Below are positions 11,507-18,078 of a DNA stretch of 64,000 bases, one piece after another; position 1 is the first letter of the stretch; each line of letters starts with the position of its first letter. The notes under the pieces are model-generated. The model was not told the DNA's origin, searched no databases, and saw only the letters and a list, made by a program, of their open reading frames with translations. Source of the DNA: Deinococcaceae bacterium (GTDB lineage Bacteria > Deinococcota > Deinococci > Deinococcales > Trueperaceae); contig JBIQHQ010000003.1 of the NCBI GenBank assembly GCA_044508445.1, forward strand, positions 37,696 to 101,695, in the 5' to 3' direction. A program made the translations under genes and the position numbers.

Positions 11507-13366
11507 TCACCAGCCCGTGAAGGTGCCGCCCTCCGGGACCAGCGCGGCTCGCACGTGCAGGCTCATGGGGTAGTAGGCGGCCACGTCCAGGGGGCGTCCC
11601 TGTTCGTCGTAGGCGTAGCGCGCGTCGAGCGGCCTGCCGGCGCCGTCGCGCAGCACCACGAGGACCTGGGCCATGCCCTGCGACCAGTCGATGGCCGCGG
11701 CGCCCTCCATGCCCGCCACGCTCTGCGCCACGCTCACCACGCCCTCGTCCTCGAGGCGCAGGGCGCTGGGCTCGCTGCAGGCGGGCCTGACCGTGATGAG
11801 GTCGTCGGGCACCAGGCATAGCTGGACGAGCACGGGCTCGTCGGTCGGCTTGTCGAGCAGCTCCACCTGCACGTGCAGCGTGCCCCGTCCGTAGGCGCGC
11901 AGGTCGCCCACGGCGGCGGCCGGCGCCTCGAGGAACGTGAAGGCCCCCTCGCCGCCCTGCTCCACGGGCCGTGGGCTGATCGTCGCGTCCACCAGCGCCA
12001 GGGCTTGGCCGGCGGCCGCCTGCGGCTCGGGCTCGGGCCGGGGCTCCGGCTCCGGCGGCAGCGCGGCGACGGCGTCGCCGCCCGGCTCCTCGTCCGGCTC
12101 CTCGGGAGCCGGCTCGGCCACGGGCGGCTCCTCTGCGGGAGGCTCGGCCACCGGTGGCTCCTCGGCGGGAGGCTCGGCCGCGGGCGGCTCCTGGGCCGGA
12201 GGCTCCTCCGCGACCGGCGGCTCCTCCTCGGGCTGCTCCACCACGGGCGGCTCCGCCGCGGGCTGCTCGGCCTCCTCGCCGCCGGGGGGCTCCGCCGCGG
12301 GGGGCTGGTCCGCGCCGTCCGGCCGCGCGCCGACGCCCGGTCCGGGCGGCGCCTCCGCCACGGGACCCGCCGGCTCCGCCGCGGGTGGCTGCCCGCCCGG
12401 CGGAGCCAGCACGACGGGCGGCGCCTCGGCCTCGGCGGCGGCCTGCGCCTCCGCCTCGGCCTCGGCGGCCGCCTGCGCCTCCTGCGCCGCCTGGGCGGCG
12501 ACCTCGGCGGCCTGGGCCGCCGCGTCGAGCCTGGCCAGCACCGCCCGTACCTCGGCGTCGTCGGGGTCCACGCTCAGCGCCCGCTCCCACAGGCGCCGCG
12601 CCTCGTCGGCGCGGCCCAGCGCGGCGTTGGCCTGGGCCGCGCCCTTGATCGCGTCGACGAAGCCGGGGTCGCTCTGCATGGCCGCCACGTAGAGCGAGAG
12701 CGCCCCGGCCATGTTGTCCTGCGCGAACTGGCGCTCGGCGGCCAGGAACGCGTCGGCGGCGCCCAGGCCGTGCTCGGCCCCGAGCGTCGCCCTCTGCAGC
12801 GTCGGCCTGAGCTGCGGGTAGGTCTCGGCGGCGACCTCCAGGAGAGGTATCGCGCCCTCCACGTCGCCCGTCTGCAGCCTCGCCTGACCCAGGTAGGTGA
12901 CGGTGGTCAGGTCGTCCGGCACGAGGTCGTAGCTGGCTTCCAGCAGCTCCCGCGCCCGCTCCATGGCCCCGGCGGTGAAGGCCTGGTAGCCGAGCACGAG
13001 GGCGGCGCGGGCGGCGTCGGCGCGGGCGCGCGCGTCCAGCGTGCCCCCCAGCTCCAGGTACTCCTGCCACGCCTCCCAGGTCCGCGACGTCCAGCCCGTG
13101 ATGCCGTACACCTGCGCCAGGAACCGCAGCGGCTCGAGGCGGCCCGGCGCCAGCGAGCGCGCGCGCTCGCCCTGCGCTATGGCCTCGCGCCACAGGGGCT
13201 GGTCGGGGTAGTGCGCCTCGTAGGTGGCCACCGCCTCGGCCGCGGCGAGCTGGCCCGCGCGCAGCGCCTCGCTCGCCGCCTCGGGCAGGGCGCCCTGCCC
13301 CGCGGCCAGCGGCCAGGCCACCGCCAGAAGCGACAGCGCTAGGTGCTTGAGCCGGCGGTACGACAC
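11507..13366 (-). CDS. secreted TPR-repeat protein with Pro/Glu-rich linker and C-terminal domain of unknown function
   Basis: Signal peptide (RRLKHLALSLLAVAWPLAAG), then TPR-like helical repeats. A low-complexity AEPPAEEPPV repeat region follows, then a ~190-aa C-terminal domain. Start is GTG 13366 (7 nt after TAACCT) or ATG 13372. Confidence 0.7.
   Translation of the reverse strand: MSYRRLKHLALSLLAVAWPLAAGQGALPEAASEALRAGQLAAAEAVATYEAHYPDQPLWREAIAQGERARSLAPGRLEPLRFLAQVYGITGWTSRTWEAWQEYLELGGTLDARARADAARAALVLGYQAFTAGAMERARELLEASYDLVPDDLTTVTYLGQARLQTGDVEGAIPLLEVAAETYPQLRPTLQRATLGAEHGLGAADAFLAAERQFAQDNMAGALSLYVAAMQSDPGFVDAIKGAAQANAALGRADEARRLWERALSVDPDDAEVRAVLARLDAAAQAAEVAAQAAQEAQAAAEAEAEAQAAAEAEAPPVVLAPPGGQPPAAEPAGPVAEAPPGPGVGARPDGADQPPAAEPPGGEEAEQPAAEPPVVEQPEEEPPVAEEPPAQEPPAAEPPAEEPPVAEPPAEEPPVAEPAPEEPDEEPGGDAVAALPPEPEPRPEPEPQAAAGQALALVDATISPRPVEQGGEGAFTFLEAPAAAVGDLRAYGRGTLHVQVELLDKPTDEPVLVQLCLVPDDLITVRPACSEPSALRLEDEGVVSVAQSVAGMEGAAAIDWSQGMAQVLVVLRDGAGRPLDARYAYDEQGRPLDVAAYYPMSLHVRAALVPEGGTFTGW
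12111..12230 (-). repeat. degenerate 30-bp tandem repeat (3-4 units) encoding the PPAEEPPVAE linker of the TPR protein
   Basis: Plus-strand units are ggctcggccacgggcggctcctctgcggga, ggctcggccaccggtggctcctcggcggga and ggctcggccgcgggcggctcctgggccgga, plus a degenerate fourth. Confidence 0.8.
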
Positions 13367-13466
13367 GCTCATGAGGTTAGCGCCGTGCGTCACGTTGACG
13401 GGTTCACATGGGGCTGGCCTAATCATGAGCGCAAGACGCCGCCGGCTCCGGCGGCGGGATGGGTAG

Positions 13467-15083
13467 GTGCGGATGGGAAGGCTGCGAACGTTGACGGCCG
13501 CATTGGCCGTCCTGGCGCTGCTGGCGACCGGCTCGGGCCAGGACGGCGGCGGGCCCGACTGGGGTCGTCGGGCGCTGGGTCAGCTCGGCGACGCCGGTTT
13601 CGACCTGGGCTTCCCCGACGGCTCGTTCCTGGGCGAGGGCGCGGTCACCGGCTACCAGGCGGCGGTGCTCGTGGACAGGCTGCTGGCGCGCGCCGACGCC
13701 GCCACGGGCTGCACCGACGCCATGGCCGGCCTGCCCGACACGGGCTTCGCCTTCAGCGACGTCCCGGCCGACCACTGGGCCGCCGGCGCCGCGGCGCGGG
13801 TGGCCGCCCTGGGCGTCCAGGAGGCGTTCCCCGACGGACGCCTGAACGGGGACGAGTTCCTCACGGGCTTCCAGACGGCGGCGCTGATCGCCGGCGCCGT
13901 CTCGGCGGTGGACGCCAAGGTGGAGTGCGGCGAGTCGACCGTCGCCGAGCGGCTGGGCGCGATGAGCGCAGAGGTGCAGTCGCTGCGGGCCGCCATCGCC
14001 GAGGGCGCTCTGCAGGGACCCCCGGGACCGCAGGGACCGCCAGGGGAGGCGGGCCCGCCCGGGCCGCCAGGGCCGCCAGGGGAGGCCGGGCCGGCAGGTC
14101 CGCCCGGTCCCGAGGGGCCCGAGGGTCCCGCCGGTCCGCAGGGTCCGCCCGGGGAGCAGGGCCCCGCCGGTCCGGCCGGCCCCGAGGGTCCCGTTGGTCC
14201 CGCCGGACCTCCCGGCGAGGTGGGCGCCACGGGTCCGGCGGGTCCTCCGGGACCGCCGGGACCCCCGGGTCCGCAGGGCGAGGTCGGCCCCGTGGGGCCG
14301 GCAGGTCCGCCGGGACCTCCGGGCGCCGACGGCGCCCCGGGACGCGACGGCCTGGCGTGTTGGGACAGCGACGGCGACGGGGCGCCGAGCGAGGGCGAGG
14401 ACGTGGACCTCGACGGCGTCGTGGACGCGAACGACTGCGTGGGTCCGCCCGGACCGCCGGGGCCGCAGGGCGACGTCGGCCCCGCCGGACCGCCCGGACC
14501 CCCTGGACCGATGGGCCCGGCCGGTCCCGCCGGCCCGGCCGGCGAGATGGGACCGCCGGGACCGCAGGGCGAGCAGGGCCCTCCGGGGCCGCAGGGCGAC
14601 GTGGGCCCGGCCGGTCCTCCGGGCCCCGCCGGCGAGGCCGGCCCGGCGGGTCCTCCGGGTCCCGCCGGCGAGAAGGGCGACCCCGGTCCGGAGGGTCCCG
14701 CCGGACCGCAGGGCCCCGCGGGCCCCAAGGGCGACCCGGGCGAGCAGGGTCCGGCGGGCCCGAAGGGCGACAAGGGCGACAAGGGCGACCAGGGCGAGCC
14801 GGGACCGGCGGGTCCCGAGGGTCCCGCCGGACCGCAGGGCCCTGAGGGACCGCAAGGTCCGCAGGGTCCCGAGGGCCCGCCCGGCGAGTGCGACTGCCCC
14901 GCCGCCGTGGGCCAGACGGCGGCGACCGAGGAGGCGCTGCCCGCGGCGGGCTCGGCACGCGCCTACGCGGTGATCCAGGCGGTCCAGCTCGCCTGCGGCG
15001 CCGGCGGGCTGCCGCCGGGCGTCGACTACGTGATCGAGCCGCTGCCCGAGCCGGCGTTCACGGCCCGCGCACCGGACGGCTGA
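13467..15083 (+). CDS. SLH-domain collagen-like triple-helix repeat protein (paralogue A)
   Basis: Signal peptide and SLH motif [29 protein letters not shown]. Heptad-like segment after KVECGE. GXY tracts at aa 184-295 and 326-474, separated by [28 protein letters not shown]-terminal GECDCP plus a ~60-aa tail. Confidence 0.85.
14016..14351 (+). repeat. collagen-type GXY tract 1 of paralogue A (37 triplets)
   Basis: Uninterrupted Gly every third residue from aa 184 to 295 ([18 protein letters not shown]...[10 protein letters not shown]). Confidence 0.9.
14442..14888 (+). repeat. collagen-type GXY tract 2 of paralogue A (about 49 triplets)
   Basis: aa 326-474, [18 protein letters not shown]...[16 protein letters not shown]...GPPGE, followed directly by CDC. 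Confidence 0.9.
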
Positions 15084-15102
15084 GCACACCGGGGAGGGGA
15101 GG

Positions 15103-15133
15103 GGCGCGCGGGCCGCACATCGGTCCGCGCGCC
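15103..15133 (+). terminator. GC-rich hairpin between the two collagen-like genes (candidate intrinsic terminator)
   Basis: ggcgcgcgggcc / gcacatc / ggtccgcgcgcc gives a 12-bp stem with one G-U pair and a 7-nt loop, followed by gcttcctct. It lies 20 nt after the stop at 15083 and just before the TACCCT hexamer of the next gene. Confidence 0.5.
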
Positions 15134-15152
15134 GCTTCCTCTACCCTGGGCC

Positions 15153-16283
15153 ATGCGCAAGAGGGTCACTGGCAGGCTCGTGCCGACGGCTCTGCTCGTC
15201 GTGCTGGCAACCTTCGGGCTGACCCAGGGCGACGTCCAGTGGGGCCGCGACGCCGTGCGGGGCCTCAGCGAGGGCGGGGTGGACGTCACGTTCCCGGACG
15301 GCTCCTTCCTCGGCGAGGGCGCGCTCACCGGCTACCAGGCCGCGGTCCTCGTCGACAGGCTGCTCTCCCGCGTCGACGCCGCCACGGGCTGTCCCGACCA
15401 GCTCGTTGCCGGTCCCGTGGAGGGGTTCGCCTTCGTCGACGTTCCCGAGGACCACTGGGCCAGAGACTCGGTGGAGCGCCTGGCGACCCTGGGCGTGGCG
15501 CCGGCGTTCCCCTCGGGCGAGTTCCGCGGCGACTCGTTCCTCAGCGGCTACCAGACGGCCCTGCTCCTCGACAAGGCCCTCGACCTGGCCATGGAGAAGG
15601 TCGTCTGCGGCGAGGAGCGCCTGTACCAGCGCGTCGACGACCTGGCGGACCGGCTGCAGACAGTCCTCGACGCCATGGCGGCGGGAGAGTTCGTCGGGCC
15701 CGAGGGCCCGGCCGGTCCTCCGGGGCCCGAGGGCCCTGCCGGCGCGTCCTGCTGGGACCTCGACGGCGACGGCCGGGCCGGACCCGGCGAGGACGTGGAC
15801 GGCGACGGCGCCGTCGGTGTCCTCGACTGCCGCGGGCCCCAGGGCCCAGCGGGCCCGGCCGGCCCACAGGGACCGCAGGGGCCCAGGGGCGAGCGCGGGC
15901 CCATAGGGCTGCCGGGGGCGGACGGCGCGCCGGGCGCACCGGGGCGTCCCGGGGACCCCGGCCGCACCGGCCCGGCGGGCCCGGCCGGTCCTCCGGGCCC
16001 CGCCGGCGAGCCCGGGCTCGCCTGTTGGGACCTCGACGCCGACGGGGCGCCCGACCTGGGTGAGGACGTGGACGGCGACGGCCTGGTGGGCGTTCTCGAC
16101 TGCCGGGGCGAGCAGGGGCCCGCCGGCCCTCCGGGACCTCAGGGACCGCCCGGCCCGGCCGGCCCGGCGGGTCCGCAGGGGCCCGAGGGACCGCCGGGAC
16201 CGCAGGGCCCCGCCGGTCCGGCGGGTCCTCCCGGGCCGCAGGGTCCGCAGGGCCCCCAGGGGCCGCCCGGCGCGCCCGGCTGA
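15153..16283 (+). CDS. SLH-domain collagen-like triple-helix repeat protein (paralogue B)
   Basis: Same N-terminal architecture as 13467..15083 ([54 protein letters not shown]). Three GXY tracts are separated by two Cys-bracketed DxDxDG modules. The protein ends inside the GXY repeat. Confidence 0.85.
15834..16016 (+). repeat. collagen-type GXY tract 2 of paralogue B (20 triplets)
   Basis: aa 228-288, [28 protein letters not shown]...GEPG. A short 5-triplet tract lies at 15696-15743. Confidence 0.9.
16107..16280 (+). repeat. collagen-type GXY tract 3 of paralogue B (19 triplets, runs to the C-terminus)
   Basis: aa 319-376, [19 protein letters not shown]...[16 protein letters not shown], then the stop. 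Confidence 0.9.
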
Positions 16284-16302: not shown

Positions 16303-18078
16303 CTAGCGCAGCGTGATCGTGAAGTACCGCGGCTCCGACTGCGCGGGACCGCCGCCCGCACCGCCCGAGTCGCGCAGCACGACCTGGAACGTGGCGGAGC
16401 CCGTCCCGAAGGCGGTGAACCGCAGCGTGCCCTGGGCGTCGATCGTGGGCGCGGGGAGGAAGGGCGGCCTGTCGCCGTCGTACCAGGTCACGACGAAGGT
16501 GAGGCCCTGTCCCGCCTCGTCCTCGCCGCCTCCCGGCGACACGTGCTGGGCGAAGCCCTCCACGGTCACGGCCCTGGCGACGCTCGCGTCCACGGTGTCC
16601 CGCAGCAGCTCGAACGTGGGCGGGTCGTTGACCGCCTCCACCTTCACCGTCGCCTTGACGTCCTTGCTGACGGCGCCCAGGCCGTTCCTCACCCTGTAGG
16701 TGAACGCGAAGGGCCTCACGTCGTCGCTCTCGGGGCGGAACGTGAAGGAGCCGTCCGCCGCCAGGTCGAGGTCGCCGTGGTCGTCGGCCGACACCAGCTC
16801 CACCGTGGCGTCGTCCCCCGCCGCGTCGTTCGCCAGCACGCCGGGGGCCGGCACGCTCAGCTCGGTGTCCTCCGGCGTGGCGTACTGGTCGGGCTTCACC
16901 GCGGGCGGGGGGACGAGCTCCAGCGACACCTCGGCGGTGGGTCCCGCCACGTCGTGGGCGCCGCGGAGGCGGTAGGAGAACGTCACGCCCGACGGGGGGC
17001 GGCCGGGCGGGGAGTAGGTGAAAGACCCGTCGGCGCCGAGGTCGAGCTCCCCCGGACCCGCGAACTCCACGAGCTCGGCCCGCGCGCCACCGCCGGCCTC
17101 GTCGTTGGCCAGCACGCCCGGCGCGGCGACGTCGGAGGGGGCGTCGGCCCTCAAGGCGAAGGCGTCGGGCTCCGCCACCGGCGTCACGGCGGCCACGACC
17201 GTCACGTACGTGAGGCCGCGCACGCCGGCCACGCAGAAGCCCTGGCCGGTCTCGCAGGCCCCGGCCAGGCCGAGGAGCCGGGAGCGGTCGGGGTCGGCGG
17301 GCGCCGCGTTCACGCTCACCTGCAGGACGCTGCCGGACGTGTAGGTGAAGCCGAGGAGGCAGTCGGCGTCGGGGCGCACCTCGCAGGCGTCGAAGCCCCT
17401 GTCGTCCGGCGGGGAGACGGTGACCTCCACGGGGGCGTCGCCGTCGAGGCCGAGCCGCAGCACGTGGGAGCGGAACAGGGCGGTCACCGTCGTGTCCTCG
17501 TCCACGACGAGGCGACAGGCGGGCGTGGGCGGGCAGGGCGCCCCGAACCCCGCGAACGCGGCGTCACCGTCGCTGCCGGACAGCGAGGCCTCCGACCCCG
17601 GCGCGAGGCCCACCACGCAGTCGTCGCTGCAGGTCAGCGGCCCGGCTCCCCCCTCCACCGACACGGTGCCCTGGCCGTCCAGGTCCAGCGTGAGGCGCAC
17701 CCCGGGCAGCGGGGCCACGGGACCGGCGTCCTGGACCACGGGCACGCCGGGCCCGTCCGGACCGACGGCGGCCACGGCGTAGCCGTAGGAGACCCCCGGC
17801 TCGGCCGTGTAGTCGGCGTGCTCCCTGGCCTCGCCGGGGACGCGCGCCAGCTCGGCCATCCCTCCGCCGGCGGCTGCCCTGTAGACGACGAACGACTCGG
17901 CGCCGTCACCCCCCGACCAGGCCACGAGGACGCCGGCGGGGACCGGCGTGGCGGTGACGTCGCCCACCGGCCCGGGGCGCGGGCTCGGCGCGCCGCACGA
18001 CGCCAGGCACGCGGCCAGCCCGAGCGCCGCGCCTACGGCCCTCAGCCGCCGGATGGGGTGCTGCGCACGCTGGGACAC
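16303..18078 (-). CDS. surface lipoprotein with FN3-like and tandem cadherin/Ig-like (GVLAND) repeats
   Basis: Lipoprotein-type signal [13 protein letters not shown]3-like [17 protein letters not shown]...YGYAVAAV. Two ~90-aa modules containing APGVLAND...DGSFT(Y/F), plus a VNDPPTF motif. GGAGGA lies 6 nt before the GTG start. Confidence 0.7.

Follow-up and report, generated by a model that had tools for sequence, protein, structure and literature searches.

The stretch of DNA analysed here (the window) comprises 64,000 nucleotides of a Deinococcaceae bacterium (NCBI GenBank assembly GCA_044508445.1, contig JBIQHQ010000003.1, positions 37,696 to 101,695 of the forward strand) and carries two adjacent paralogous genes, here called geneA and geneB, whose products are 52% identical and combine an SLH region with collagen-like Gly-X-Y repeats. 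In both proteins these repeats are broken by a 27-residue module, made of two contiguous 12-residue loops of the EF-hand/dockerin type between two cysteines, which is best described as a new, uncurated mini-domain built on a known calcium-loop motif. A reading made from the sequence alone (the sequence-only reading) had reported three copies of this module, and their positions and translations were confirmed by our own translation, the pattern being unique in the window. It had, however, placed the copies in one protein, whereas copy 1 belongs to geneA and copies 2 and 3 to geneB. The geneB product is identical to a protein (P0001) from NCBI assembly GCA_044506245.1, and the relatives of this protein are named Trueperaceae. 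The two genes, recognised as open reading frames (ORFs), and the three copies are as follows:

13473 to 15083, plus strand: geneA, 536 residues from the ATG, with a GTG at 13467 as alternative start (ORF and translation; a 536-residue gene in the public record)
14358 to 14438, plus strand: module copy 1, in geneA; loop 1 at 14364-14399, loop 2 at 14400-14435 (translation and DNA pattern)
15153 to 16283, plus strand: geneB, 376 residues (ORF and translation; N-terminal domain modelled by AlphaFold2 with a predicted local distance difference test score, pLDDT, above 90)
15750 to 15830, plus strand: module copy 2, in geneB; loop 1 at 15756-15791, loop 2 at 15792-15827 (translation and DNA pattern; AlphaFold2 pLDDT 89-92 in the module-only model)
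16023 to 16103, plus strand: module copy 3, in geneB; loop 1 at 16029-16064, loop 2 at 16065-16100 (translation and DNA pattern; pLDDT 80-86 in the full-length model)

The three copies lie on the plus strand in one common frame and each spans 27 residues from Cys to Cys, in the order C-W, D-x-D-x-D-G-x5-E (loop 1), D-x-D-x-D-G-x-V-x3-D (loop 2) and C. As had been proposed, the two loops are directly contiguous, have no flanking helices and, with the two Cys, break the Gly-X-Y repeat; both the translations and the AlphaFold2 models agree with this. The first Cys (C1) takes the Gly place of the next triplet (G-L-A-C) and Gly-X-Y restarts at the second residue past the closing Cys (C27), the whole break being 28 residues long, that is 3n+1. 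A degenerate DNA pattern encoding C-W-D-x-[DN]-x-[DN]-G-x5-E-D-x-[DN]-x-D-G had three matches in the 64 kb window, all of them module copies, and was found in 0/100 dinucleotide-preserving shuffles. These shuffles and the invariant C/W/D/C positions led us to reject a chance Asp-rich low-complexity stretch. At the DNA level the copies show a mean column identity of 83% over 121 nt, with differences at many synonymous and flanking positions, which argues that their similarity has been kept at the protein level; a recent DNA duplication as its source was rejected on the same grounds.

The sequence-only reading had made its proposal depend on conservation of the module, and the module is indeed conserved. 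A search with the N-terminal 234 residues of geneB collected 83 relatives (mostly SLH plus collagen proteins, 36-82% identical), which yielded 62 distinct modules, all of them (62/62) measuring exactly 27 residues from Cys to Cys. Positions C1, W2, D3, D26 and C27 are invariant in these modules, E14 is found in 60/62 and D15 in 61/62. The consensus is C1 W2 D3 x [ND]5 x [ND]7 G8 x x D11 x x E14 D15 x [ND]17 x D19 G20 x [VWF]22 [DN]23 x x D26 C27 (as a sequence, CWDLNGNGVGDPEEDVNGDGVVDVLDC), giving D-x-[ND]-x-[ND]-G-x-x-D-x-x-E for loop 1 and D-x-[ND]-x-D-G-x-[VFW]-[DN]-x-x-D for loop 2. Since a Gly stands at position -3, C1 occupies a Gly position, and the x-G right behind C27 makes the break 28 residues (3n+1). 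The calcium ligands were assessed with a PROSITE-type EF-hand pattern (positions 1, 3, 5, 6, 9 and 12, position 8 being ignored): in the window loop 1 fits in copies 1, 2 and 3 and loop 2 fits fully in copies 2 and 3, while among 443 distinct modules the fit holds for loop 1 in 394 and for loop 2 in 331. From these loop sequences we infer that the module binds calcium.

Database searches extend the module far beyond the window. When 1.84 billion representative proteins were screened with a profile built from the 62 modules, 2,213 of them, each representing a protein cluster, matched at E<=1e-3; 624 of these passed E<=1e-10 and 128 passed E<=1e-30, and one protein can hold as many as 17 copies. 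The DNA pattern matched at least 119 stretches in species-representative genomes. The module is found in at least seven bacterial phyla. Among the 80 loci listed, by our count, 45 belong to Bacteroidota / Rhodothermales (Saprospiraceae and the cultured Flagellimonas, Allomuricauda and Taibaiella), 10 to Gammaproteobacteria, 9 to Planctomycetota, 6 to Deinococcota, 3 to Myxococcota / Deltaproteobacteria, 2 to Chloroflexota and 1 to Gemmatimonadota, and 4 are unclassified. A phage origin of the module was considered and rejected, the pattern having 6 matches in 2.9 million viral contigs.

Pfam recognised Collagen in 61/91 module-rich proteins and a terminal Peptidase_S74, the chaperone domain of trimeric fibres, in 12/91. 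However, neither Pfam nor NCBIfam holds a model covering the 27-residue unit, whether the query was the window proteins, single modules or module-rich proteins, and the proteins that carry it are unnamed or "hypothetical" in the databases, including those found by a homologue search with a three-module protein. A homologue search with a 51-column module alignment gave 3 matches only, dominated by collagen words. The module profile matched no PDB structure over the whole unit and nothing below E 0.046, and literature searches on bacterial collagen, calcium loops, SLH, EF-hand and disulfide did not return a description of it. Within Pfam, NCBIfam, the PDB and the searched literature, the earlier statement that no equivalent has been described therefore stands.

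The module is tightly coupled to the register of the Gly-X-Y repeats. A Gly is present at position -3 in 580/619 modules, and the linkers between modules are 3n+1 residues long in 379/449 cases, 338 of which are a perfect x(GXY)n. The number n is evenly spread from 1 to 7 and beyond, ranging from one triplet to more than 20; linkers of 1-3 triplets are common and many linkers have 4-10 residues. Counting triplets on both sides, 136/602 modules have at least 6, 147/602 have 3 or fewer and 59/602 have 1 or fewer. The association with collagen is thus strong yet not obligatory, modules lying mostly between collagen repeats: in 25/144 module-rich proteins, which hold 94 modules, Gly-X-Y never reaches six triplets in a row, and certain linkers depart from Gly-X-Y altogether (QALD in P0164, RGPSATAGQA in P0118). 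Because the module works with 4-residue or non-collagen linkers, it must fold on its own. The idea that it is purely an interruption of the collagen helix has accordingly to be given up in favour of an autonomous repeat, as the linkers of 4-10 residues and the 25/144 proteins lacking a six-triplet run indicate.

How such a short unit might fold is suggested by covariation, measured as mutual information (MI) with average product correction (APC) over the 443 distinct modules. The top pair, by a wide margin, is formed by positions 10 and 22 (MI 0.54, the next pair reaching 0.35), each of which is position 8 of its own loop. A Cys is found at position 10 of 56/443 modules and at position 22 of 54/443, and all of the latter (54/54) have Cys at both. 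In EF-hand pairs, position 8 of each loop forms a short antiparallel beta-bridge (Ile27-Ile63 in calmodulin). The simplest reading of the 10-22 covariation at this bridge position is therefore that the contiguous loops fold back on each other, and, likewise on the simplest reading of the sequences, some lineages would add a second, internal disulfide (C10-C22) besides C1-C27. A single-chain AlphaFold2 model of the module with 12 flanking residues on each side (51 residues, 56 sequences) has a mean pLDDT of 87, with 89-92 across the module. In this model as in the full-length one, which was run independently, all loops show a single helical turn of 3-4 residues at loop positions 10-12, much as position 12 of EF-hand and dockerin loops falls within the first turn of the helix that leaves the loop.

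The reading that we favour, and which taken as a whole we consider fairly probable, is that of an autonomous mini-domain with two Ca2+ and an intrachain C1-C27 staple, displayed as knobs on trimeric stalks. The module would be a self-contained extracellular domain of two contiguous 12-residue EF-hand/dockerin-type calcium loops without flanking helices, folded back like an EF-hand pair with position 8 touching position 8', and the invariant Trp together with a C1-C27 disulfide within the chain would tie its ends, each unit binding two Ca2+. As its two ends meet, such a unit can be spliced in register into Gly-X-Y repeats: with residues 2-26 looped out, C1, C27 and the following residue would form a pseudo-triplet that keeps the Gly register. 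The host proteins would probably be homotrimeric, with an SLH wall anchor, a helical stalk like that of SlpA/OmpM and then a collagen rod, and at each break three modules with six Ca2+ would stand out from the rod, forming a stiff knob or kink. Such knobs would give the rod a node or kink that calcium stiffens and that resists proteases, and they might also offer a binding site. The intrachain staple is preferred because of the occurrence outside collagen, the confident monomer model and the covarying extra Cys pair (8/8'). For the trimeric context we rely on the N-terminal match to SlpA/OmpM-type SLH domains (see below), on the Peptidase_S74 end in 12/91 module-rich proteins and on Collagen in 61/91. 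Disulfide topology, trimeric state and mechanical role are, like calcium binding, what we infer from these data.

Several observations weigh against this reading. At position 8, where a hydrophobic residue is usual, loop 1 has none, and in window copies 1 and 2 its position 9 holds Ser or Gly, not Asp. Foldseek searches of the PDB and BFVD with the 51-residue module model found no structural neighbour, so that the fold assignment rests on covariation and motif logic. P0045, a geneA orthologue (84% identical) with a shorter collagen part, has no module, which makes the module dispensable in that lineage. In one subfamily a degenerate variant of 28 residues, CWEIVLEGVPGVSSDIDLDDPAALLQAC, keeps C, W and the closing C and has lost the loop-1 ligands, from which it follows that the scaffold can outlast the loss of one calcium site. 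Finally, no complete SLH-collagen relative lacks both the module and a terminal C-x-C, which would also fit interchain cross-linking: 46 carry just the module, 6 combine the two (as geneA also does), 6 show C-x-C without a module and 5 have neither, these 5 being apparently truncated or equipped with another Cys-rich domain. The C-terminal C-x-C, as in geneA, is present in 12 SLH-collagen relatives, and one clade has no module and G-x-C-x-C at its end. The degenerate variant was seen at a matching site of the collagen part in P0051, P0057, P0058, P0061, P0062 and P0067.

Two of these points, the loss of the module in P0045 and the variant of the CWE... type that retains Cys and Trp without the loop-1 ligands, could also be explained if the module were a calcium-independent spacer or hinge, i.e. 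an Asp-rich, disulfide-closed flexible loop which kinks the rod or carries charge for cations, minerals or basic polymers. The composition of the window copies, with 8-10 acidic and 0-1 basic residues each, is in line with this. Mere charge, however, would not account for conservation that is position-specific (1, 3, 5, Gly6, 9 and 12) and not compositional, for the way Asn and Asp replace each other at positions 3 and 5, a trait of true calcium loops, or for the single helical turns predicted at loop positions 10-12. We regard a spacer or hinge of this kind as most improbable.

With the canonical EF-hand pair (PF00036/PF13202/PF13499; PS00018) the module has in common the 12-residue loops with ligands at 1, 3, 5, 9 and 12 and Gly at 6, the pairing of loops within a unit, the Glu with which loop 1 ends (position 12) and the 8-8' covariation that corresponds to the beta-bridge. 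It differs in having no entering or exiting helices, its loops being directly contiguous, in its predicted disulfide closure, in its invariant Trp and in being extracellular and embedded in Gly-X-Y. Instead of a helix-loop-helix, C-W precedes loop 1, loop 2 starts right behind Glu12, and Cys and Gly-X-Y follow; scores stay below the Pfam thresholds (EF-hand_5 13.8 against 25.9 bits, EF-hand_1 10.8 against 25.4).

Type I dockerins (PF00404) consist of two segments of about 22 residues, each a calcium loop plus a helix. Loop 2 of the module (D-x-N-x-D-G-x-V-D-x-x-D) is of the dockerin type, and both units have two loops and are extracellular. The module, however, has 27 residues where a dockerin has about 60-70, lacks the F-hand helices and bears a Cys and Trp cap. 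This resemblance raises the question whether the module is a dockerin-like, calcium-dependent site recruiting a partner (a cohesin- or cadherin-like neighbour, an S-layer component or a polysaccharide) onto the collagen stalk. Loop 2 matches dockerin loops best, Dockerin_1 is the only Pfam model that collects matches in multi-copy proteins, and the public record places polysaccharide-synthesis genes and a cadherin-domain lipoprotein next to geneA and geneB. Yet the Dockerin_1 matches in 17/91 module-rich proteins arise solely from summed weak loop matches (the multi-copy protein P0113 totals 28.5 bits although none of its stretches is significant), one module by itself reaches 12.9 bits where the cut-off is 22.9, and the variable positions, beyond ligands and core, show no conserved surface patch. 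The cohesin-binding face of dockerins is moreover formed by helices, and the module is without them. No cohesin is found among the Pfam matches on record for the immediate neighbours, although no search aimed at cohesins was made. Docking of this type appears very unlikely to us.

The thrombospondin type-3 repeats (PF02412; the "calcium wire" of TSP/COMP) offer the other close parallel. They are contiguous Asp-rich loops of the DxDxDG type without regular secondary structure, organised by bound Ca2+ and stapled by local disulfides in oligomeric extracellular proteins, and the module sequence and its AlphaFold2 secondary structure agree in principle with such an arrangement, its disulfides and Ca2+ being predicted. 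TSP3 repeats are of 13- and 23-residue types; the module, by contrast, has two 12-residue loops, an invariant Trp, a fixed 27-residue Cys-Cys span and Gly-X-Y flanks. No match to TSP_3 / TSP3_bac (PF02412 / PF18884) was obtained at E<=1 for window proteins and single modules or at E<=0.1 for multi-copy proteins. The weak PDB sequence matches (E>=0.046) pair loop 1 with EF-hand loops and loop 2 with dockerin loops, and they include a stretch of BamM, DHDLDGVFDFEEDINGDGYV. BamM (PDB 9n2d) has a back-to-back loop pair, DHDLDGVFDFEE-DINGDG, as in the module, and its C-terminal domain, a bacterial TSP3-like stretch, has no secondary structure and binds seven Ca2+ (PMC12611786). From its sequence, the module would act like an EF-hand pair or a TSP3 "calcium wire" while being a member of neither.

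The geneA product consists of a signal peptide, an SLH region, a helical stalk, 38 triplets, the module, 50 triplets, G-E-C-D-C-P and a 61-residue tail; the geneB product consists of a signal peptide, an SLH region, a helix (132-176), 6 triplets, a module, 21 triplets, a module and 19 triplets up to the stop. The features of the two genes outside the modules are:

13752 to 13880, plus strand: geneA SLH motif, residues 96-138 counted from the GTG at 13467 (Pfam SLH, 2.5e-6)
14016 to 14357, plus strand: geneA Gly-X-Y run of 38 triplets, upstream of the module (triplet count)
14442 to 14891, plus strand: geneA Gly-X-Y run of 50 triplets, downstream of the module (triplet count)
14889 to 14897, plus strand: geneA C-D-C motif (G-E-C-D-C-P), immediately past the last triplet; candidate interchain cystine knot
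15432 to 15545, plus strand: geneB SLH motif, residues 94-131 (Pfam SLH, 9.7e-7)
15546 to 15680, plus strand: geneB long alpha-helix, residues 132-176, from the SLH region to the collagen part; presumed coiled-coil stalk (AlphaFold2, pLDDT about 90)
15696 to 15749, plus strand: geneB Gly-X-Y run of 6 triplets, from the helix to module copy 2 (triplet count)
15834 to 16022, plus strand: geneB Gly-X-Y run of 21 triplets, from module copy 2 to copy 3 (triplet count)
16107 to 16277, plus strand: geneB Gly-X-Y run of 19 triplets, to the C-terminus (triplet count)

Both proteins have long Gly-X-Y runs and match Pfam Collagen (PF01391), geneA with an E-value of 2.9e-39 and geneB with 9.5e-18. The best PDB relatives of the N-terminal region are the SLH domain of Deinococcus radiodurans SlpA (7zgx, E 7e-9) and OmpM-type SLH proteins (8bz2, 8bys), and Foldseek places SLH domains on top for the geneB model (3pyw and 7sv3; probability about 1, E 0.04-0.2). 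This AlphaFold2 model, built with 50 family sequences, has pLDDT values above 90 for the N-terminal domain, 68-86 for the modules and 44-60 for the Gly-X-Y runs, as expected for a single chain. In SlpA and OmpM-type proteins, one SLH motif per chain and a coiled coil make up a trimeric wall anchor, and the host proteins share the order of an N-terminal SLH domain followed by a long, presumed coiled coil. They have no C-terminal outer-membrane beta-barrel, geneB ending in Gly-X-Y and geneA in the 61-residue tail past C-D-C. In the SLH/helix region of geneB, Cys80 (15390-15392) and Cys152 (15606-15608) are invariant in 50/50 aligned family members, with the same residues in geneA, and probably form a conserved disulfide. 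A heterotrimer of the two proteins was considered and rejected, as their modules would be 5 residues out of register, or 10 triplets with copy 2 looped out. Among the relatives, a barrel-like C-terminal domain with an aromatic residue at its end is confined to the distant P0072 and P0075, which combine it with an SLH domain, a coiled coil and a short collagen run; from this layout they may be outer membrane-to-wall tethers of the SlpA/OmpM type with a collagen spacer.

If the stalks are trimeric, the cysteines could also be joined between chains. In this arrangement, which comes close to the disulfide-locked trimer node of the sequence-only reading, three modules would be placed around the helix axis with C1 and C27 bonded across chains as in collagen III and with the six loops sharing a calcium cluster. 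The outcome would be a covalent, calcium-dependent registration or re-nucleation node that could hold very short Gly-X-Y runs triple-helical. Known collagen cystine knots and interruptions (GPCCG of collagen III, the junction Cys pairs of FACIT collagens, the breaks of collagen IV) resemble the module in having two Cys per chain at a break or end and a fixed register at the break (3n+1), and the terminal C-D-C that geneA has in addition looks like an interchain cystine knot of the collagen III style. The known knots differ in spanning few residues and binding no metal, and the interruptions known from bacterial collagens, e.g. that of PclA (reviewed in PMC8968730), are not calcium-loop modules.

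In favour of the interchain bond, C1 stands at an axis-facing Gly position, which would bring three C1 residues close together, and geneB has neither another Cys past the helix nor a C-terminal domain. Linkers of 1-3 triplets, which are common, would need outside help to be triple-helical. The interchain version keeps some probability, since complete members of the family always carry a module, a C-terminal C-x-C or both, but this complementarity is based on about two independent clades. Furthermore, modules occur in proteins without any collagen run and with non-Gly-X-Y linkers, the monomer is modelled with confidence by AlphaFold2, and the covarying Cys at 10 and 22 are most simply read as an extra bond within the module on top of C1-C27. 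For these reasons an interchain lock is not favoured and we rate it as unlikely, though worth keeping in mind. The more specific proposal of a calcium-gated trimerisation and registration node, in which the three modules would come together on the helix axis as a disulfide-linked cluster of six Ca2+ that nucleates the triple helix anew and locks it, seems to us doubtful as well, though not negligible. The mini-domain with its intrachain staple thus remains the reading that we prefer.

The genes around geneA and geneB were also inspected. The product of the divergent upstream gene (11507-13426, minus strand) is a TPR protein with a globular C-terminal part and a long stretch, rich in Pro, Glu and Ala, of repeats of the EPPxAEPP type. 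The convergent downstream gene (16303-18078, minus strand), whose end lies 20 bp from the geneB stop, encodes a lipoprotein-like protein with Cadherin_4, Cadherin_5 and Big_9 domains, a candidate for a further calcium-dependent surface protein beside the collagen genes. Overlapping ORFs present between 13343 and 16361 in several frames and on both strands (among them 13419..15089, minus strand, 556 residues, and 14888..16063, plus strand) were not considered as genes; long overlapping ORFs run through the collagen region because of its G+C content of about 80% and its Gly-X-Y periodicity.

Two other observations were made in the course of the searches. In the cultured Flagellimonas nanhaiensis, a locus (L067, 2614-3654) encodes a lipoprotein made of 7 Gly-X-Y triplets, one module, 2 triplets and a globular domain of about 270 residues, which is a short and tractable example in a cultivable bacterium. 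Two proteins, P0123 and P0200, have arrays of 22-36 contiguous loops, mostly of 12 or 14 residues (D-x-N-G-N-G-x-L-D-x-x-E), with no Cys, Trp or helices. Neither a Pfam family nor a true PDB relative was found for these arrays; the sole PDB match to the Cys-free 12-residue loop array, 9e5c, was discarded as an artefact of periodic composition. As loop 1 of the module resembles one unit of these arrays, the arrays and the module may, judging from their motifs, be parts of a larger uncatalogued group of calcium-loop repeats without helices.

The DxDxDG/EF-hand type of calcium loop is well known, but its arrangement as a helix-free head-to-tail pair with a Cys-Trp…Cys cap, inserted in register into collagen, is apparently uncatalogued. 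The architecture of the module, its tight coupling to the Gly-X-Y register and its unannotated breadth should be moderately surprising to specialists of collagen and of calcium binding, the chemistry itself being familiar. If the predicted behaviour holds true, the module would be a 27-residue, genetically encodable calcium-binding node for engineered collagen materials, and its invariant Trp beside the loops would suit Tb3+ luminescence assays. If the trimerisation and registration node were true, runs of only 1-5 Gly-X-Y triplets could be triple-helical, and the module would represent a new and widespread bacterial route to the control of collagen folding and register as well as a calcium switch for designed collagens. 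In the window, the module marks two SLH-anchored collagen stalks in a Truepera-type cell envelope, for which our literature searches found no description of such stalks. More generally, annotators of bacterial collagen-like, fibre and surface proteins would gain a defined domain, and this domain would account for many of the "interruptions" recorded in such proteins.

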